From contig OZ244914.1 in assembly GCA_965221795.1 (NCBI GenBank), positions 3,130,030 through 3,194,029 on the forward strand: a DNA stretch of 64,000 bases. Reading direction: 5' to 3'. A model generated the notes under the pieces. That model was not told the DNA's origin and did no database searches. It was given only the letters and a program-made list of their open reading frames with translations. Of this stretch, positions 2,725-39,970 are shown one piece after another. Source of the DNA: Candidatus Poriferihabitaceae bacterium (GTDB lineage: Bacteria > Pseudomonadota > Gammaproteobacteria > Arenicellales > Poriferihabitantaceae). Numbering within the stretch: position 1 is the first letter of the stretch; each line of letters begins with the position of its first letter. A program made the position numbers and the translations under genes.

Positions 2725-4299
2725 TCAGGTGTCGTTTTGTCGACGAAAGTAGTCGGTCAGAAACTCCTCAAAAGATAGAGTGTCGCTCGCCTCAATCGCC
2801 GCTTGCTGTTCCAGGGACCATGTAGCTTGTTGCTGATAATGTTGCATGGTGTCGGCAGTGATTTGCCAGTCCTTGAAATAGCGTTGATGGGCTTTCGCCT
2901 GGTGCATGGCAAACGAGAAAAAACTGTCGTACTCCTTTTCAATAGTGTCCACGGTTCTGGCGGATGGAGTCAGGGTCGGGTCTTCGACCCGGGCGCGTTG
3001 GACGGAAAGGGTATGTTGATAAGCGGTTCCGCCACAGACCCCGTCCAGCAAGGCGGACAGATTCATCATTTGGTCGAGTACCGTTATCGCGGCTTTTTGA
3101 AAGGGTACTTCGCCATCTTCGAACTGCAGGTGCAGGTCTGGTTTTCGCCCCTCCATAACCACACGCAGCCGATTTTCGGTCGCTTGCTGAAGCTCTGCTT
3201 CGTGAATGGGTTGATCGCTGCGGAACAGGCAATACAGCAGAAAGAGATCGAGAAATCGGATCGTTTCCGGGCTGATGCCGATCGGAGTGAACGGATCCAG
3301 GTCCAGGCTTCGGATTTCGACGTACTGGACTCCACGGTCTCGCAAGGCACCGGAAGGACTTTCCCCGGAGCGAGCGACTTGTTTGGGTCGGATCACAGAA
3401 TAGAATTCGTTTTCAATCTGCAGAAGATTCGGATTCAGTTGCTGATAGACTCCGTCCACAGTGACAGGAATCGCCTGATAGGGTGCCCAAGGCGTTTGGA
3501 TTGCCTTTCGTAATGTAGTCACATACTGTCCCAGACTGTTGTAATTGATGGCCAGTGTAGATTGGGCATCATTGCTGTAGCCCAGGTTGCTGAGCCGCAG
3601 AGAGGTGGCATGGGGCGCATAAAAACTGTGTTCCTTGAGTTTTGCCAGTTGGTGTGGTCGGCCTTGCAGAAAGGTTTGGCAGACCGCTGGTGAAGCCCCA
3701 AAGAGATAGCATATCAGCCATGCATTTCGCAGGAAATTACGGGTCAGGGCGAAATATCGTGTGGACCGTTCCCGAACCAGATGGGTGGGTTCATCTGTTT
3801 TCAGGTATCGTGTCCAGAATTCGTCCGGCAGGGAAAAGTTGTAGTGGATGCCCGCAATGGTCTGCATCAGTCGTCCATAGCGATGACCCAGTCCACGGCG
3901 ATAGGTTTCCTTCATCTGGGCGATATTGGAACTTCCATACTGGGCAATCGGGATGGCTTGCTCTCCGAGCACGATGCAAGGCATGCTGTTGACCCATAGC
4001 ATTTCATCGACTATGTTTTGGTACGTATAGCGATGAATATCCGTCAGCTCGCGCAGCAGGCCGTCGATGCTGGTATGGATCGGCGTGACGAATTCCAGAA
4101 GTGCTTCGGAGTAATCGGTGGTGATGGACGGGTGGGTCAGGGCAGAGCCCAATGTGTGGGGGTGGGGTTTCTGGGACAAGGTACCATCTGGATTGACTCG
4201 GAGACTTTCTTTCTCGATCCCGCGCTGGAGGGTTCGAAAACAGGATTCGAGGCCGCCATTCACGATAGCGTTCAAGGTTTGGTCAAGGTTGATGTTCAC
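2725..4299 (-). CDS. gshA: glutamate--cysteine ligase (type 1)
   Basis: LQRGIEKESLRVNPDGTLSQKPHPHTLGSALTHPSITTDYSEALLEFVTP and RRGLGHRYGRLMQTIAGIHYNFSLP align with E. coli GshA. The ORF is open up to 4473, but homology begins near VNINLDQTL, so a GTG at 4299 is the preferred start. Confidence 0.9.
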   Translation of the reverse strand: MNINLDQTLNAIVNGGLESCFRTLQRGIEKESLRVNPDGTLSQKPHPHTLGSALTHPSITTDYSEALLEFVTPIHTSIDGLLRELTDIHRYTYQNIVDEMLWVNSMPCIVLGEQAIPIAQYGSSNIAQMKETYRRGLGHRYGRLMQTIAGIHYNFSLPDEFWTRYLKTDEPTHLVRERSTRYFALTRNFLRNAWLICYLFGASPAVCQTFLQGRPHQLAKLKEHSFYAPHATSLRLSNLGYSNDAQSTLAINYNSLGQYVTTLRKAIQTPWAPYQAIPVTVDGVYQQLNPNLLQIENEFYSVIRPKQVARSGESPSGALRDRGVQYVEIRSLDLDPFTPIGISPETIRFLDLFLLYCLFRSDQPIHEAELQQATENRLRVVMEGRKPDLHLQFEDGEVPFQKAAITVLDQMMNLSALLDGVCGGTAYQHTLSVQRARVEDPTLTPSARTVDTIEKEYDSFFSFAMHQAKAHQRYFKDWQITADTMQHYQQQATWSLEQQAAIEASDTLSFEEFLTDYFRRQNDT

Positions 4300-4467: not shown

Positions 4468-5439
4468 ATGCAAGCGGAATTCTCAGTAGCACCGATGATG
4501 GAAGTTACGGACCGTCATTGTCGTGCATTGTGGCGCCTTTTTTCCCGGCGCACTCGTCTGTATACGCAGATGGTAGTCACTGGCTCCATTGTTCATGGAG
4601 ATCGGGATCACTTCCTCGGTTTTGACGAAAGCGAGCATCCTGTTGCCATTCAACTCGGGGGAGCCGACCCGGAGGAATTGGCATACTGTGCGCAATTGGC
4701 GGAAGACCGGGGATATGATGAAGTGAACCTGAATGTTGGCTGCCCCAGCAATCGTGTGCGGAGAGGATTGTTCGGGGCTTGTCTGATGGCAAAGCCGGCA
4801 TTGGTGGCGAGTTGCGTCGAAACGATGAAAGCAGCCGTAACCATCCCCGTTACTGTCAAGACTCGGACCGGGATTGATAACCGGGATCGCTACGAAGACT
4901 TATCCGAATTTGTCCGAGTCAATGCGGAGTCGGGCTGCGAGCACTTCATCATTCATGCCCGGAAAGCCTGGCTTACGGGGCTAAACCCCAAAGAGAACCG
5001 AACGATCCCGCCACTCCAATATGATACGGTGTATCGATTGAAATCAGACTATCCGCATCTGCGGTTTACCCTGAATGGAGGAGTCAGGGACTTGGACCAG
5101 GCCGAGAGACATCTCGCCCGGGTCGATGGGGTGATGATGGGGCGACAGGTTTCCGTTGATCCTTGGCTATTGACTGAGGTGGATGAGAGACTGTTCGGGG
5201 AGAACTGGAGCGAACGGCCCATCTCCCGTTTTGAGATTCTGAATCGATATTTGCCCTATGTCGAACGGCAATTGTCCCAAGGAGTGTATCTGCGACATAT
5301 GAGTCGACATCTGTTGCCACTGTTTCATGGGCAGCCCGGGGCAAAATCATGGCGTCGCCATCTGTCCGAGTACGGCCCCCGAAAAGGTGCCGGCCTGGAA
5401 GTCATCGAGCAGGCGGTACAATATGTCAAAGGAGGATAA
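4468..5439 (+). CDS. dusA: tRNA-dihydrouridine(20/20a) synthase
   Basis: N-terminal VAPMMEVTDRHCR and NLNVGCPS motifs. Length of 323 aa is typical of DusA. Confidence 0.88.
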   Translation: MQAEFSVAPMMEVTDRHCRALWRLFSRRTRLYTQMVVTGSIVHGDRDHFLGFDESEHPVAIQLGGADPEELAYCAQLAEDRGYDEVNLNVGCPSNRVRRGLFGACLMAKPALVASCVETMKAAVTIPVTVKTRTGIDNRDRYEDLSEFVRVNAESGCEHFIIHARKAWLTGLNPKENRTIPPLQYDTVYRLKSDYPHLRFTLNGGVRDLDQAERHLARVDGVMMGRQVSVDPWLLTEVDERLFGENWSERPISRFEILNRYLPYVERQLSQGVYLRHMSRHLLPLFHGQPGAKSWRRHLSEYGPRKGAGLEVIEQAVQYVKGG

Positions 5440-5548
5440 GAATGGCACTGAGTCGGGGCATGGTTCCCATAACCGAACGAAAATCATGGGGTGGGTGGAT
5501 GGTCATATTTGGCAAATGGCCTCCCTTCCTTGCGCCTGATGGGATGTA

Positions 5549-6373
5549 ATGATGTGGCTCGAAGAGTTTTTGGTCGGGTGGCTGGATGTCTCGGAAATCA
5601 TTCGGCTGGAAGTGTTTTTCGGGATGTTTGCCCTGATCGCGTTCCTGGAGCGACTGATTCCGGCGAGACGTCATGGCTGGCAAGGAAGAGTGCTGGGGAA
5701 TACTGGCTTGCAATTGGTCAACGTTTCGGTACAAGTGGTCCTGCTGTCGGTCGCCCCGTTGACGCTCTCGGCCATTGCGCTACAGTCATTGTTCAGCCAG
5801 TTTGGCATGCTCCACCACTTGCAGATTGGCCTGTGGGAAAAAATATTCATTGCTTGGCTGGTGTTGGATCTGGCATCGTACGGATGGCATCGTGCCTGGC
5901 ACAGCATTCCTGTGCTCTGGCGGTTTCATCGGATTCATCATCTGGACCCATTCCTGGATGTGCTGACCACATTCCGGACCCATCCCGTAGAAATGGTGAT
6001 GACGCTGTTCTTCCGGGGAGGGATCGTCTATCTGTTGGGTGTCCCTCTGTTGGGTGTGATCCTGTATGAAATCATCATACTGGTTATGGCGTTATGGATT
6101 CATGGCAATCTCAGGGTCCATCCGACCCTGGACCGAATGCTGGCTTGGTTGGTGGTCACTCCCGGTGTGCATCGGATGCATCACCGCGCCCAGAAAACCG
6201 AGTGCGATTGCAATTTTGGGCTGATTCTGACGGTATGGGACCGTATGTTCGGGACATACCGCAGAGAAGACGCTTGCATACTCACTGGTCCCGGTCTGAT
6301 CGCTCCGGATATTCCCTTTGCGCGAACGCTGCCCGGGATGATATGGTTGCCATTTCGGATGTCTGACAAATGA
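5549..6373 (+). CDS. fatty acid hydroxylase / sterol desaturase family membrane protein
   Basis: Histidine boxes HRAWH, HRIHHLD and HRMHH in a polytopic hydrophobic protein. Confidence 0.75.
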   Translation: MMWLEEFLVGWLDVSEIIRLEVFFGMFALIAFLERLIPARRHGWQGRVLGNTGLQLVNVSVQVVLLSVAPLTLSAIALQSLFSQFGMLHHLQIGLWEKIFIAWLVLDLASYGWHRAWHSIPVLWRFHRIHHLDPFLDVLTTFRTHPVEMVMTLFFRGGIVYLLGVPLLGVILYEIIILVMALWIHGNLRVHPTLDRMLAWLVVTPGVHRMHHRAQKTECDCNFGLILTVWDRMFGTYRREDACILTGPGLIAPDIPFARTLPGMIWLPFRMSDK

Positions 6374-12147: not shown

Positions 12148-12254
12148 GATGGAAAATCATCTGAACCTATTCACATCTTTATGCCGAAAGTGCTTGATGC
12201 AAAATCATCCGAGCCTATTCACATCTTTCTGCCGAAGGTTCTTGATGAAAAATC
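12148..12254 (+). repeat. 48-bp direct tandem repeat (2 full units plus an 11-nt third start) immediately 5' of and running into the amidase start codon
   Basis: Unit 1 (12148-12195) is gatggaaaatcatctgaacctattcacatctttatgccgaaagtgctt. Unit 2 (12196-12243) is gatgcaaaatcatccgagcctattcacatctttctgccgaaggttctt. A third gatgaaaaatc follows. Each unit carries an ATG in the amidase frame. Confidence 0.9.
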
Positions 12255-32054: not shown

Positions 32055-32127
32055 GGCCAGGTAGCTCAGTCGGTAGAGCAGGGGACTGAAAATCCCCGTG
32101 TCGGCAGTTCGATTCTGTCCCTGGCCA
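32055..32127 (+). tRNA. tRNA-Phe (anticodon GAA), CCA not fully encoded
   Basis: ggccaggtagctcagtcggtagagcaggggactGAAaatccccgtgtcggcagttcgattctgtccctggcca has a canonical cloverleaf. It is followed by cct. Confidence 0.93.
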
Positions 32128-32214
32128 CCTCCAACCTCCCCTTGGATAGTAGAAAATCGGGTTATGTTCAGGCCAGGTTGGCCGCATTTGCCTTGCATCG
32201 TGCAACAGTCCAGT

Positions 32215-34175: not shown

Positions 34176-34481
34176 ATAGGGTATGAGCGGGTACGCCATT
34201 TCGATTCATAGAGGGTTTCGGCCGAACCTGCTCCATCATGCCCCATCACCCGGCCCCTTTTTTCCGTACGAATAGGGGGCAGTGGCAGGCATATTCAAAA
34301 GTCCCTGATTTGCCGATTTTAGTGCGGTGCGGGCGAGGCGTCGGGGTGTGTTGAAGGAGGGTCGGGTGCTGGCGGACCGTCATGGGCGTACCGACGGGCG
34401 GCCGGGAGCGGACTCAGGCCGCACCGGACGCAATGCGCCGGACGGAGCGCAAGGGGACCGACGTTCGATGCCGGGTGGCGG

Positions 34482-34760
34482 CCTCTCCACCATAGAGGAT
34501 ATATTTATACCTTGCGCCAACATCATCACAGGTTTTGCTGTAGTGTTTCCCGAGTTTGGGCGCAATGCCACACCTGATCTCTATAGCCCAAATTTCAGAC
34601 GATGGCATTTTGATCACCAAATCAATTTCTGCACCCGCCACTGTTCGGTAAAAATAGGTTTCTGAATGGCTGGGCAGGACAGAATGAATATTTTCAATGA
34701 CAAACCCTTCCCAGCTTTTACCCAGCACAGGATTGGACAGAAGCGAGTCATACCCATTGA
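34482..34760 (-). pseudogene. C-terminal fragment of a DUF4143-type AAA ATPase gene
   Basis: NPVLGKSWEGFVIENI...YFYRTVAGAEIDLVIKMPSSEIWAIEIRCG matches the DUF4143 tail (GxLFENxV...YFWRTxxGxEVDFV...IEVK). It is fused in frame to unrelated GC-rich sequence on both sides. Confidence 0.55.
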
Positions 34761-35090
34761 TCCCCCGGCTGGCCGTGCTGCCGCCAGCGTGACGGGTCGA
34801 CGAACGTCTCCGCCAGCAACACCGGATACCCGTGCGCCTTCCGGAAGTCCGCGGACCGCCGCTGCAGGCTCCGCCCAGCGCCCGCGAGGCCAGGTTCGGC
34901 ACCCGGCCGGCCGTACCGCAAAGCGCACGTGGTTCGCCACCAGGTGCAGCCGCGCAAACGGTCGCTCCCGAGTCCACCCGATCCAGGTCGCGCACCCCCA
35001 CCTTGAATGCACCGGCCTCCCACCTCACTAGCGCCAGCCACTGCCCGTCACGCACCTCCACCTCGCCCAGCCAGTTCCCCATCTCTCCGC
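34760..35090 (-). pseudogene. GC-rich DUF4338-like fragment (IS-associated), multiply frameshifted
   Basis: GQWLALVRWEAGAFKVGVRD in one frame and HGYPVLLAETFVDPSR in another. The same kind of sequence recurs at 55.3-55.6 kb. Confidence 0.45.
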
Positions 35091-35148
35091 CACCATCTGG
35101 CTTCTACCGACTTTGTAACACATCTTTTGAATCGTCAGCGATATCTCT

Positions 35149-35940
35149 CCTTCATCTCAAATGTTCTTCGTCTGGACTTTTGAATAGCCCTGACCAGCGG
35201 GCGGGTCGTCGACCCCCGCAGTGCGCTGATCCAGTCCAGGCTCGCCGCCTTCACCTCCTCGCGGATTCTCGCCTCGGCCAGCATCCCGCGATCCCCCACC
35301 AGCACCACCTTCAACCGCCCGAAGCGAGCTCGCAGCTTCTCGATCGGTGGCCCCATGGTCGCCGGGTTGGCGGGGTTGCCAGCAAACACCTCTACCGCCA
35401 TTGGGCAGCCCCCGGCATCGCACCGCAACCCGAACTCGATCGGCAGCTTGGCCCCGCTTGCCGTCCCGGGAGTAACCGTGCCGGGCCAGCAGGCAGTGAC
35501 GTCCTTCCCGGTACCCCGAAGTCCGGTCGTACCGCACCGGCTGTCAGATGCCGCCGGGCCAGCGCCCGCTCCAGCCCCTCTTGACGAGACCGCAACCAGT
35601 CCATGGCCGCGTGCCGGCGACCGTCGCGGCGCAAGGAGCCGGTCTAGGCGCAGTTGGCGGCGCGTACCGAGGACCGCGGCGACGTGCCCATGGGGGGCGG
35701 GAGCGGGCGATGTCAAAGACCTCTTCCCGCCCGACCAGGGGGGCTTCCTTGAGCACCCGGCGCAGGGCCTTGACCTTGGCCGGCGGCCAGTGGGAGAGAT
35801 TGGCGAAGGTGCGTTTCCGGACCTTGCGGCCCTCGTGCTAGTCTTCGCACAGGAGAATAGCGAGTGGGGAATTCCGGTTCGGGACTGTATCGATATACAG
35901 GGGAGCATATAAAAATGCCAGGACGTATTATCCCCCAACG
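35149..35940 (-). pseudogene. IS1634-family transposase fragment (middle part), frameshifted
   Basis: GYSRDGKRGQ in one frame. GCPMAVEVFAGNPANPATMGPPIEKLRARFGRLKVVLVGDRGMLAEARIREEVKAASLDWISALR in another. This is the typical IS1634 DDE-region sequence. Confidence 0.6.
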
Positions 35941-35972
35941 AATCAAGCAGTTGAATCGAAAACTAGCAAGAA

Positions 35973-36600
35973 ATGGGGGGCTTCAGGCTAATAGAGCACT
36001 TGGCACGGGGATTCACTGCGAACACGGAAAGACTGGAAGAGCGCGGCTTGCGCAGGGCACATGAAACACTTGACCGGCGTTCCCGGATTCTTCAGAATTC
36101 GAAACTGGTAGACGATTCCGGGCAAACCGTATTGGATATCATCACTGGATATGCCGCCACATGGCACTTGCTCAGAAGCTATGACGAAGACCAGTGGGAG
36201 TATCCAGCCAGAAGAGGGAACCCTCGCAACCAGGCATTGAATGACTGCCGGACACTCGACGTAATTGCAAGATTCAGGCAGGACCTTGAAGGGTGAGGGA
36301 TGCTCGCTCTTCGGCAATGGCCGGGGAGATGCTCTGGAAGCCATTCTCGGCAATATTGAACCAACCATGTTTGGCGAACCGCTTTACCCAACCCGGAAAC
36401 AAAAGCGGCGCATCTTCTCTATTCCCTAATCAAGGATCATCCGTTCACTGATGGCAACAAGCGCATCGGTTCACGCCTGTTTCTTGTGGCCCTGGAACCG
36501 GAGAGAGTGACGCATCATATCAACCCGCCAGCACTGACCGCTCTCACCCTGTTGATTGCTGCAAGTATGCCGTCCGGGAGGACTTGGTCATTCGTCTCGT
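35973..36600 (+). pseudogene. Fic/DOC-family (RhuM-like, R-M-locus-associated) gene with at least 2 frameshifts
   Basis: Fic motif HPFTDGNKRIG at 36438-36470. The upstream blocks LFGNGRGDALEAILGNIEPTMFGEPLYPTRKQK and AAHLLYSLIKDHPF lie in different frames. There is a stop at 36294-36296. Confidence 0.6.
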
Positions 36601-36629
36601 TGCAAATCTGCTGGATCCGCCAGCATGAA

Positions 36630-36900
36630 GCTATCAACGAATCTGATGTTGCGAATGCTGCGCTTGAGTTGCTGGGTGAATTCGGCTTTACCATCGCACA
36701 CGGATCAAGCATTGACCCTGACAGCGCATCCGAGGAACGAACCTGCTATGACGAGGCCTTGCTGACAGGACGATTGCGCAGGGCATTCCCCCGACTCAAC
36801 CCGCACCTCTCGGAAGACATTTGGGAAGAGGTATTACGCCAATTGTTGCAGACAGACGCGCCTTCTCTGGTCAACGAGAATCGTCGGCTTCATCGTTATT
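36630..36900 (+). pseudogene. hsdR: N-terminal fragment (about 90 aa) of a type I restriction enzyme R subunit
   Basis: NESDVANAALELLGEFGF...ERTCYDEALLTGRLRRAFPRLNPHLSEDIWEEVLRQLL...SLVNENRRLHR matches the conserved HsdR N-terminus. Homology ends near 36897. Confidence 0.6.
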
Positions 36901-37085
36901 CCAGTTCCATCAGTGCAAAGGACGCAAAAGGTGGGGGCGATACAGAGGTTGATTGACCCTGCCGATCCCTATTGTGGGGAGGGCTAGCTGGTGTCAAGCA
37001 ATGATGTGCAAGCCCCAATATTGTCCGGGACGTTGTTGATCGTCAGCCTGCCCTCTTTGAGAATCTCTGACACGCTAGTCGTTCA

Positions 37086-37109
37086 GCTGCCTTCAAGCTT
37101 GAAGGCAGC
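37086..37109. repeat. 24-bp perfect palindrome (gctgccttcaagcttgaaggcagc)
   Basis: Read directly. It is centred on AAGCTT, about 125 bp downstream of the stop of the 37233..38115 gene. Confidence 0.85.
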
Positions 37110-37232
37110 CAGGAACTAACCGGCATGAAGCCTGCATTCAAAACCGGCGGTGTCTCGCCTGGAATGCCCAGGGACGGGGCCCGGTCTGAAAATTGCAGAA
37201 AGAGGCAACCCTTGAATGCGTGACGCAAGTCA

Positions 37233-38115
37233 CTAGCGCACATCGACCGTGACGTCGCAATATTCGGCATAACTACGACCTCCTCTTTGCCGCCAGGCCT
37301 CACTGGGCCAGCGCTCCGGGCCGCAATTGTAGGCGTGCCGAAAGGTGGCCCCATAGCCAACTAAATGTACAACCTCGGGGTTTTGAATCAGGTTGCGGCC
37401 TGCGCCATCCTTGAATGATCTACATGAATCGCCGCCCCTAATGCAAACATTGCCCCAGATCCGCACCCGGAAGATGCCGTTGCTCGGGGTCTTGGCGATC
37501 GGGGTGGGAGTGGAGCCGGCGGTGTACGTGCCAGGGGTGCCAGGGGTGCCAGGGGTGTACGTGCTGGGAATATCCCCAGCCTGCTGCTGCGGGGTGTTCC
37601 CATCGTACTCGCCAGTCAGGGGCGTCGTATCTCCCGTGCATGCCGGGTACCCGCGATTAGCGGTGAAAGTTCTTCCCATGAAAGTAACTCTCCGCGAGCA
37701 TTTTCTGGCCTTCCAGGTAGGGCAGGCGATGGCGATGGGCCCGCCGCGGGAATAGGTGCCGGTGGCATTGTGGAACTCGACCGGTTGCCCCGAGCCCGGA
37801 CTGTGGGCGCACTTAAAGCCAGAGCCCACGCCGAAGGTCGTCGTCGAGCCCGCAGGAGCGGGCAGGACCTCGATCTGCAGGTCCCGGACCAAGCCGTGCC
37901 AGATCCGGTTTTGAACGGTGGGGGCGGGCCCGGTCAGGTGGCTTGTCAGACTGCTGACGTGAACGGGGGCGGGCTGCAGAACCCGTGAATTTCGGTCCGA
38001 GTTCGGGATAAGGCTCTCATACTGTGCCGATGCGGGCAGGGCAAGGGCCGTGCTCAGCAGGATGGCGGCGAAAGCCCTGAGAAAGAGAGGGGGGGGGGGG
38101 GGTAAAGCGTATCAT
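37233..38115 (-). CDS. GC-rich secreted Cys-rich hypothetical protein, currently out of frame at a poly-C(14) tract just after the start codon
   Basis: ATG at 38115 (MIRFT), then C14. A signal peptide, LFLRAFAAILLSTALALPASA-QYE, continues into ORF 37233..37892 in the frame that C13 or C16 would restore. That frame has no ATG/GTG/TTG upstream of the signal peptide. Confidence 0.6.
37531..37557. repeat. 9-bp tandem repeat x3 (ccaggggtg) inside the secreted-protein gene
   Basis: Read directly. On the coding strand it encodes PGTPGTPGT. It is flanked by the duplicated gtacgtg. Confidence 0.85.
38089..38102. repeat. homopolymeric G14 (C14 on the coding strand)
   Basis: Counted directly: G at 38089-38102. 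Confidence 0.95.
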
Positions 38116-38334
38116 GATGGATCCTCCAGGCTGCGTGACTGTCTTTACTTCTACTACTTTTCTGTCTGAGTAGAAGGGGCCTTAAAAAAACTACCCAGCA
38201 TTATATCAGCTTTCATGTCCCCTTTTCCAGTGTGAAGTGCAACACCCCTTAAGCCGCTAGCTGGTGAGGTGAAAAGCTTGCGGTGGGCCAGAGGATGGTC
38301 AACCATCTCGGTTGATCACCAACGGAGGATTGCC

Positions 38335-39303
38335 ATGCCCGTAGGCTACCATCACCTGACCCCTGCCGAACGATGCCAGATTCACGCCCTTTTGCATCGG
38401 GGGTGGTCGAAACGGGAGATCGCCCGCGATCTCGGACGGGATCCCGCGACGATCTCGCGGGAGACCTCGCGCAACCGTGGCCAGCGCGGCTACCGGCACC
38501 AACCGGCCGACCTCCAGGCCACGGCCCGCCGTCAGGAAGTGTCGGCGGTGCCCCGGAAGATGACACCGGAGCGCTGGGCGGCCGCGGAAGAACGGTTGCA
38601 GGAAGGATGGAGCCCGGAACCGATCGCTGGCTGGGTTCGGCTGCCGGGGGAAGGGATGGCGGGCCAGGAGTGGATCTACCCGTAGGTGCGGGCCGACCGG
38701 CAGGCGGGAGGAATCCGGTACCGGTGCCTGCGCCGTCGGGGCCAGAAGCCGAACGGGCGCGGCGGCCGCCATGCCGGACGCGGTCACATTCCCGATCGGG
38801 TCGGCCTTGCGGAGCGCCCGGCAGTGGTCGAGGAGAAGGGCCGGATCGGAGACTGGGAGCGGGATACGATCATTGGCGCGAGACACCGGGAGGCGCTGGT
38901 ATCGGCGGTGGACCGGGGCTCGAAGTTCCTCTTCCTGGAGTGGGTGGAGGGCCAGACGGCCACCGCCGTGACCGCGGCGCTCACCCGGCGTCTGGGTCCG
39001 GTCCGGGACCGGGTTCACACCTGCACGGCGGACCACGACAAGGAGTTCGCGAGGCATCGGGAGATCGCGGAGAAGCTCGATGCGGGCTTTTACTTCGCCA
39101 CCCCCTACCATTCCTGGGAACGGGGCCGGAACGAGCACACCAACGGCCTGGTGCGCCAGTACTTCCCGAAAGGGACGGACTTCCGCCAGGTGACTCCTGC
39201 GCCGGTGCGGGCAGTGGAGGACCGGCTCCACCGTCGGCCTCGGAAGGTCTTGGGATACCGCACTCCGGCGGAGGTCTTTGCCCGTGGGCCGGCTCCCCCC
39301 TGA
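38335..39303 (+). mobile_element. IS30-family transposase gene with one in-frame TAG
   Basis: HTH region LTPAERCQIHALLHRGWSKREIARDLGRDPATISRE. DDE region GDWERDTI...TADHDKEF...PYHSWERGRNEHTNGLVRQYFPKG. ORFs 38269..38685 and 38686..39303 are in the same frame, separated by TAG at 38683-38685 (WIYP*VRADRQAGG). Confidence 0.8.
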
Positions 39304-39660
39304 CGCGGTCCGCGGTCGCCCCTCGACCCCGGCACTCCGGGCCCTCTGGTGATCCACCGGAGCGGCTTCGCTCGGCCTCCCGGTCCTGGGTGCGCCCTTG
39401 CCTTGGCCGATGGCTTCGATCAGGATCGACAGCAGTCGAGATGGCTGCCATCCGGGACCGAAAAGAAGCGCTCGCAGCGCGATTTTTTGGGTCGCCGCCG
39501 CGATCCCTCCCTTCGGGCTACGCCCTCATTCCGGGATCGCGGCACGGTTGCACTTCGGACTGGTCCCGGGGCCTTCATCTCGGATATTCTCCGTCTGGAC
39601 TTTTGAATAGCCCTGGGGGCAGTGGGGCAGGGACTACGGCCTGGGGTGATCTCTCCCAAA
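39300..39660 (-). pseudogene. second IS1634-family transposase fragment, decayed
   Basis: Nt 39572-39615 are about 90 percent identical to 35149-35192. The continuation shows weak IS1634-like strings (PG....CNR, AAATQK) across frames. Confidence 0.4.
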
Positions 39661-39970
39661 CATGGTATCGGCGCATGATCTCATGGCTGGACAACCGATG
39701 CGCCGACAGATCTGCATCGAGCATTCGGGTACACGCGATATACAGAGAGACGACTCCTACTGTTGGTATTTTCTTCTGGCAAATTTGATGGGCTCATCGC
39801 AGCTTGACCTGGTGGTCAGTCAGTTCCAGTAGGGAAGTGGGGTTTGTGCATGTGCGATACACATAATGGTTGCGTGACATCCTATTGGGCGACAATGCGG
39901 TTGGTCGGTTCCAATTGTGCGAAAGTTTTGTCGGTCTTCCTGCAGTCGAGTCAGTGATTCTCATGCCGGA

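Follow-up and report, generated by a model that had tools for sequence, protein, structure and literature searches.

The window analysed here is a stretch of 64,000 nucleotides (64 kb), in which a gene on the minus strand carries an uninterrupted run of 14 cytosines shortly after its start codon (Table 1). Read along the minus strand, the order of elements is GGAGGA, tccatc, ATG ATA CGC TTT A, C14 and TCTCTTTCTCAGGGCTTTCGCC. The run begins in the fifth codon, past the start codon and ahead of the hydrophobic core of a signal peptide. As assembled, the ATG frame is translated as MIRFTPPPPSLSQGFRRHPAEHGPCPARIGTV and ends after 32 codons at a TGA (38019–38017). The long open reading frame (ORF) lies one base downstream (+1) of the ATG frame, is closed upstream by a TGA (38114–38112) and stays open for 293 codons up to the TAG at 37235–37233, with the translation PPPPPLFLRAFAAILLSTALALPASA/QYE and an N-terminal reading of PPPPP-LFLRAFAAILLSTALALPASA-QYE. 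The first ATG, GTG or TTG of this frame is the TTG at 37892 (codon 75), deep inside the protein, and none is located ahead of the signal peptide. Removal of one C (C13) or addition of two (C16) joins the ATG to the ORF, as checked by hand.

These readings agree with the first-pass annotation of this DNA, which had placed the G14 run behind ATG ATA CGC TTT A, exactly as found on re-reading of the minus strand. It had ended the ATG frame after about 30 codons and predicted that C13 or C16 would restore a frame into the signal peptide of a protein of about 290 aa reaching the ORF at 37233..37892. It had also noted the closing TGA and the lack of a start before the signal peptide, both of which hold. 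It further described the gene as "currently OFF"; the out-of-frame state stands as a property of the assembled sequence alone, and "currently" reaches beyond it.

Table 1. Features of the tract gene and its upstream region in the window (L032 and L033, copies of the locus in other strains)
Feature	Position	Strand	Remarks
Mature protein coding region, about 263 aa, TAG stop (37233–37235) included	37233..38024	(-)	Translation and family alignment
In-frame 9-bp tandem repeat GTGCCAGGG (plus-strand letters), 3.3 copies	37528..37557	(-)	Codes the P-G-T repeats of the linker
Rest of signal peptide LFLRAFAAILLSTALALPASA, hydrophobic core, A-S-A cleavage motif followed by Q	38025..38087	(-)	ORF frame only; read from sequence
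Poly-C tract C14 (G14 in plus-strand letters)	38089..38102	(-)	Proposed slippage switch
ATG start codon	38113..38115	(-)	As assembled, out of frame with the long ORF
Shine-Dalgarno GGAGGA, 6 nt 5' of the ATG	38122..38127	(-)	Read directly; kept in L032 and L033
Sigma-70-type promoter-like site, TGGAAA-18 nt-TATAAT, TG before the -10 (extended -10)	38200..38229	(-)	Consensus match
IS30-family transposase relic, split into an HTH_38 ORF and a weak rve ORF	38269..39303	(+)	Abuts the promoter region, divergent

The promoter-like site matches the consensus at 10 of 12 positions, and a single such site is found where 0.3 are expected in shuffled sequence. The extended -10 element, TGnTA(T/C)AAT, is also present in L032 and L033, and the start region ATGATACGCTTTA is identical across L032, L033 and a third copy of the locus, L034. 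The module GGAGGATCC...ATG is common to several paralogs and to one unrelated tract-bearing gene. In a scan with Rfam, the 5' leader gave no RNA element, and two tRNAs were the sole matches in the window.

The mature protein contains eight invariant cysteines. Its central block is conserved, and it also has a Pro/Thr/Gly linker and a domain of about 89 aa at the C-terminus. The window ORF can be aligned over its full length with 23 homologs and retains 49 of 49 invariant columns, the eight cysteines included. The family alignment displays the signal-peptidase motif ALPAxAQ, in which P27, A30 and Q31 are invariant, and the product is predicted to be exported by the Sec pathway and to be rich in disulfide bonds. 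In L032 and L033, the 9-bp repeat that codes for the linker is one unit shorter, and it appears to constitute a second, frame-preserving length polymorphism of the gene.

Searches with the repaired 293-aa product returned no match in Pfam (E up to 1), in NCBIfam or in a sequence-profile search of the PDB. The first-pass annotation had proposed a structure prediction of the repaired protein, and the AlphaFold2 model is mostly beta, with a pLDDT of 67.6 for the full model and a confident 89.4 for the C-terminal 89 residues modelled alone. Foldseek against the PDB revealed no relative, with best E values of 1.9 (whole model) and 1.7 (C-terminal domain). A word-indexed search of 5.8 billion clusters yielded 40 relatives, none of them named and none with Pfam domains, and a full HMM search of 1.84 billion representatives identified 49 family members. 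By these comparisons the protein belongs to a tiny orphan family, in line with the earlier impression of a protein with many cysteines and a PGT repeat but of no recognised family. A confidently modelled C-terminal domain without a match among solved structures is a candidate for structural work.

No homopolymer in the 64 kb other than the G14 run exceeds 8 bases, and among runs of G or C the second longest has 7. From first-order Markov statistics of the window, one would expect about 0.003 G/C runs of at least 14 (analytic estimate). For runs of at least 8, about 4.5 are expected and one, the G14 itself, is seen. Among dinucleotide shuffles, two of 100 reached the observed count of five G10 matches. 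A run of this length arising from base composition alone is unlikely, yet not impossible, and the decisive evidence on the tract is its conservation in homologs rather than composition.

Three syntenic copies of the locus (L032, L033 and L034) were found on three contigs from two ENA analyses, L034 being obtained via the SecD sequence of the window. All share the order SecD, YajC, fructosamine kinase, EamA, IS30 relic and tract gene, and the two longer contigs reach the xanthine/uracil permease. The tract has 14 C in the window, 15 in L034, 21 in L032 and 23 in L033. L034 is 99.64% identical to the window over 8,981 nt, and 29 of the 32 differences fall in the IS30 relic. The remaining ones are G15 in place of G14, a single-base indel just past the relic ORFs and one SNP. 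The C21 tract of L032 is in frame and its product is P0001, MIRFTPPPPPPLFLRAF, while the C23 tract of L033 is in the third frame. The full-length copies (window, L032 and L033) between them cover all three frames, and in each of them the ORF is open for 278–281 codons past the anchor. The start of P0002, the gene call for L033, is read as an artefact, as it uses an upstream ATG overlapping the -10 box.

Between the window and L033, the flanking genes are 97–100% identical and the tract gene 80–95%. Pairwise dN/dS values (Nei-Gojobori) for this pair are 0.13 for EamA, 0.19 for the fructosamine kinase, 0.23 for the permease and 0.12 for the amidase. For the tract gene, the value is 1.2 in the comparisons of the window with both L033 and L032, and a ratio so near to 1 in the window's own comparisons would equally arise from relaxed constraint. 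Between L032 and L033 it reaches 4.0, from 39.5 non-synonymous and 3.5 synonymous differences (binomial P about 0.002–0.007 against neutrality). The synonymous divergence of the tract gene (0.095–0.105) lies inside the range of the flanks (0.024–0.133), and its excess divergence is thus due to amino-acid replacements. These are concentrated at the N-terminus of the mature protein, near the linker and in two loops of the C-terminal part, with long blocks of the core being identical. Such a substitution pattern is indicative of an exposed, functional protein rather than of decay. The fast segments suggest that the mature protein may be exposed to a selecting partner, for example host cells, phage or competitors.

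The first-pass annotation had also called for a search for homologs with or without tracts. Among species-representative genomes we identified 31 family loci, often in several copies per genome and all in complete or near-complete MAGs. These are labelled as Arenicellales, Ca. Poriferihabitans, Ca. Azotimanducus, Pseudohongiella, Pseudomonadales, Paracoccaceae, Aestuariivita and Alphaproteobacteria, with Poriferihabitans belonging to Arenicellales and Azotimanducus to Pseudomonadales. The host bacteria are marine and apparently sponge-associated, as judged from the name Poriferihabitans and from papers that name Arenicellales alongside sponge symbionts. No relative was found in JGI metagenomes with the exact leader pattern and a protein-pattern scan, so that all relatives come from ENA/NCBI assemblies.

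In 16 of the 31 loci, a run of 9 to 27 C is located at the equivalent spot, within a few codons of the start and in every case before the signal peptide's hydrophobic core, with lengths and frames that differ between loci. Five of these tracts are in frame (L002 C13, L004 C13, L008 C10, L009 C27 and L017 C14), close to the one-third expected if length is free. The other 11 are out of frame (L001, L003, L005, L006 with C25, L012, L013 with C18, L014, L019, L020, L022 and L027). The ORF after the tract is at least 259 codons long in 14 of the 16. L020 and L027 alone are further disrupted, and given these disruptions some family copies are probably decaying. The leader MTRLTRTL-polyP-LIEACAALL occurs with C14 and C11 in two further contigs and with C12 in L022, all three out of frame, and in P0020 the MTRLTRTL leader is in frame. 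Full-length and N-truncated gene calls occur together in clusters at 90% identity or more (for example P0093 versus P0028 and P0092). The relatives found by the profile search only, P0042 and P0058, likewise begin with M...PPPP. In L010, the run is interrupted (CCCTCCCCCGG) and fixed in frame. Outside the tracts, 43% of the proline codons of family genes are CCC and 44% are CCG, whereas inside the tracts all are CCC, which argues that the run is kept at the DNA level and not as a proline motif.

In L029, a run of 19 C (3718–3736) is found at the extreme 3' end of a family gene, just past the conserved CDVTVD motif, and may be the cause of an aberrant C-terminal extension in the database protein P0038. 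Identities to the window protein reach up to 60–73% across loci labelled Gammaproteobacteria (Arenicellales, Pseudomonadales) and Alphaproteobacteria (Paracoccaceae), and the flanks of the family loci range in GC content from 48% to 68%. This spread across classes is due to horizontal transfer between bacteria living together, or else the labels are unreliable. A reading of the tracts as "hyper-mutable tandem repeats" of the Acetobacter type was dropped when the homologs proved to be marine MAGs.

The locus displays several properties of a contingency locus. Its C14 run exceeds the length from which G/C homopolymers are hypermutable (about 8 or more), and in the window the tract length sets the frame of the ORF, with no alternative start. 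The length varies between close strains with conserved flanks (C14, C15, C21 and C23), and the gene is otherwise intact and maintained by selection. We consider it quite probable that the tract gene is a translational phase-variation locus in which poly-C slippage switches an exported Cys-rich protein. The first-pass annotation had listed it as a phase-variable candidate, a reading that has gained support from the syntenic lengths, the 16 tracts in the family and the intact ORFs. We infer, for mechanism and rate alike, that slipped-strand mispairing at replication would change the tract length. In the window allele, the ATG would meet the 293-codon frame only at lengths of 13 plus a multiple of 3. 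The C14 tract, as assembled, would yield a 32-residue dead-end peptide (OFF), and deletion of a single C would turn the gene ON. The gene would belong to a small multi-copy family of marine host-associated bacteria in which most copies bear a similar tract, each in its own state, and each lineage could toggle individual variants at random.

Slippage could alternatively act at the RNA or ribosome level rather than through heritable switching of the DNA, with RNA polymerase slipping on the C run or tRNA-Pro shifting by +1 on CCC-C. The tract would then be a dimmer that allows product from any length, an explanation we regard as unlikely. CCC-C sequences are +1 shift-prone sites and ribosomes stall at consecutive prolines, and the ORF frame in the window is +1 of the ATG, exactly the shift required. 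Endosymbiont genes with frameshifting poly(A) tracts, rescued by transcriptional slippage, provide a model for such a dimmer, and the many family genes that are out of frame yet intact would fit continued low-level expression. However, length differences are seen directly in the DNA between near-identical and sister copies, and the C23 allele of L033 would require a shift of +2 or -1, so that one ribosomal mechanism cannot serve all alleles. RNA or ribosome slippage is in any case compatible with phase variation of the DNA, where it would only make the OFF state leaky. Less probable still is an assembly artefact, in which the true tract is in frame (C13 or C16), expression is constitutive and the run just codes for prolines. 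Syntenic copies differ by 7 and 9 bases, far more than a miscount would give, and 11 of the 16 independent tracts in representative genomes are out of frame, easily read ones of 9–10 bases included. CCC is also the sole codon of the runs, although the other proline codons of these genes are CCG just as often. Long homopolymers are nevertheless the chief site of indel errors in long-read consensus sequences. The contig names (ctgN_72x_l) seem to resemble those of long-read metagenome assemblies, where counts off by one are possible, and the C15 copy, L034, lies on a contig labelled 2x. An assembly miscount, which according to the first-pass annotation would overturn its reading, thus fails as a general explanation in view of the four syntenic lengths and the out-of-frame majority in the family, and could apply to the window allele itself.

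The gene could also be a pseudogene, with an ordinary inactivating frameshift and in the course of being lost from a decaying IS-rich island. Invariant family residues are all present, 293 codons are free of any other stop or frameshift, and the frameshift falls exactly in the tract that is conserved across the family. Conservation also extends to the start codon, ribosome-binding site and extended -10. We regard this as the least probable of the explanations considered and a very improbable one. The several gene fragments and the split IS30 transposase in the island would fit such a loss, as would the dN/dS of about 1.2 for the window copy and the further disruption of L020 and L027. Against this, the value of 4.0 between L032 and L033 exceeds neutrality, and the substitutions are clustered and leave the conserved blocks untouched. 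The proportion of 5 in 16 in frame also fits genes that were silenced recently and are frozen out of frame. A dead relic with further disruptions in the homolog alignment had been named at the outset as the other outcome that would overturn the phase-variable reading. It is rejected by the invariant columns, the open ORFs of the syntenic copies and the clustering of changes.

The switch mechanism is of a known contingency-locus kind; what is new is the protein family, its host bacteria and the retention of the tract throughout the family. In gonococcal pilC, a homo-G tract in the signal-peptide region undergoes frameshifts that lead to RecA-independent on/off switching (PMC5354566). Like the window gene, pilC1 and pilC2 of Neisseria gonorrhoeae and N. 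meningitidis carry a G/C homopolymer in the part coding for the signal peptide, encode an exported protein and belong to genomes with more than a single copy. The PilC protein, a large adhesin of the pilus tip, is unrelated to the orphan Cys-rich protein of about 260 aa encoded in the window. Its host is a human pathogen in which switching is demonstrated, whereas the window derives from an uncultured marine bacterium for which switching is proposed from sequence.

The opa genes of Neisseria are multi-copy, each with a CTCTT repeat in its leader region and its own frame state, and their hypervariable segments are under diversifying selection. Several copies per genome, mixed states, clustered changes and a dN/dS above 1 are found likewise in the tract family. 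The opa repeat is a pentamer and its products are outer-membrane beta-barrels, whereas the tract family has a homopolymer, and we found no sequence or fold similarity between Opa proteins and the window protein. Campylobacter jejuni and Helicobacter possess many poly-G/C tracts of about 8–14 bases in the 5' parts of ORFs, which vary between and within strains. The additional tracts beside family genes in L004, L007 and L022 are reminiscent of this situation. In Campylobacter and Helicobacter, the tracts are mostly located in genes for glycan or flagellar modification and restriction-modification, whereas those of the window family head orphan secreted proteins. The poly(A) tracts of insect endosymbionts leave ORFs out of frame but intact in AT-rich, reduced genomes and are usually deemed mutational load. 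In contrast, the C tract of the window family keeps its position throughout the gene family, and the genomes have 48–68% GC.

Homopolymer phase variation is a textbook feature of human mucosal pathogens, and in the literature we found no report of it in symbionts of sponges or other marine invertebrates. If switching does occur, these uncultured bacteria would change single secreted proteins from one cell to the next, which bears on the persistence of symbionts in a filter-feeding, bacteria-eating and phage-rich host. The tract genes also carry a warning for annotation, as gene callers split, truncate or mis-start them. P0002 and P0016 were called from false upstream starts and many other family proteins from internal starts, and the family is largely hidden in annotation as a result.

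Further tracts are observed in genes neighbouring the family. In the L004 contig, from a Ca. Poriferihabitans MAG, the gene just upstream of the family gene (1998–2743) has its own C12 (2019–2030) after the ATG at 1998, and its assembled sequence is out of frame. The encoded protein resembles the window protein in the signal peptide and the first mature residues (15 of 29 identical) and is unrelated in the rest, a likeness that suggests a shared leader module. G/C tracts of 10–13 bases are also located beside family genes at L022 240–249 (minus strand), L022 6561–6573 and L007 3841–3851. The tract at L022 240 lies behind GGAGGATCCcgccATGAGACGTTTG, almost the ribosome-binding site and start of the window gene, and enters a different signal-peptide ORF. 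The one in L007 precedes an ORF with a signal-peptide-like segment, and the one at L022 6561 is situated about 39 nt upstream of an ORF for a Cys-containing secreted protein, on the opposite strand. A G12 run in L004 (5562–5573) closes an HsdR_N-like ORF (4974–5576). It was considered as part of a phase-variable restriction gene and discarded, as no long ORF is present beyond the tract, and it is probably a relic.

We tentatively propose, as a possibility we hold at somewhat less than even, that the tract is one instance of a modular leader switch. Such a module, consisting of ribosome-binding site, start, a few codons, poly-C and signal peptide, would head several unrelated secreted families in sponge-associated bacteria labelled as Gamma- and Alphaproteobacteria. 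If so, mutualistic or commensal marine symbionts would run sets of randomly switching, fast-evolving secreted proteins like the phase-variable sets of mucosal pathogens, possibly as a defence against phage or phagocytosis by the host. Recombination or horizontal transfer may have spread the leader.

The tract gene is located in a GC-richer island (window 34200–39900) that is flanked by the xanthine/uracil permease and EamA genes and lies some 2 kb downstream of a tRNA-Phe (32055–32129). The island contains a DUF4143 fragment, a DDE_Tnp_1 fragment and an N-terminal fragment of a type I restriction HsdR. The "GC-rich, IS-laden patch" beside restriction relics noted in the first-pass annotation was thus recovered as a GC-richer patch with transposase fragments and the HsdR fragment. 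The arrangement of the IS30 relic is also found in L032, L033 and L034, and the relic is context, outside the switch. Its identity to L033 is 76–92%, against 97–100% for the housekeeping flanks, and the segment 36060–36773 of the window is missing from L032 and L033. In L036 (1–700), the neighbours of a family gene are transposases and DruA, a gene of Druantia defence. Taken with the HsdR relics, this context suggests that the family tends toward variable or defence islands. Elsewhere in the window, a 48-bp tandem repeat (12148–12254) is present in 2.2 copies with 88% matches.
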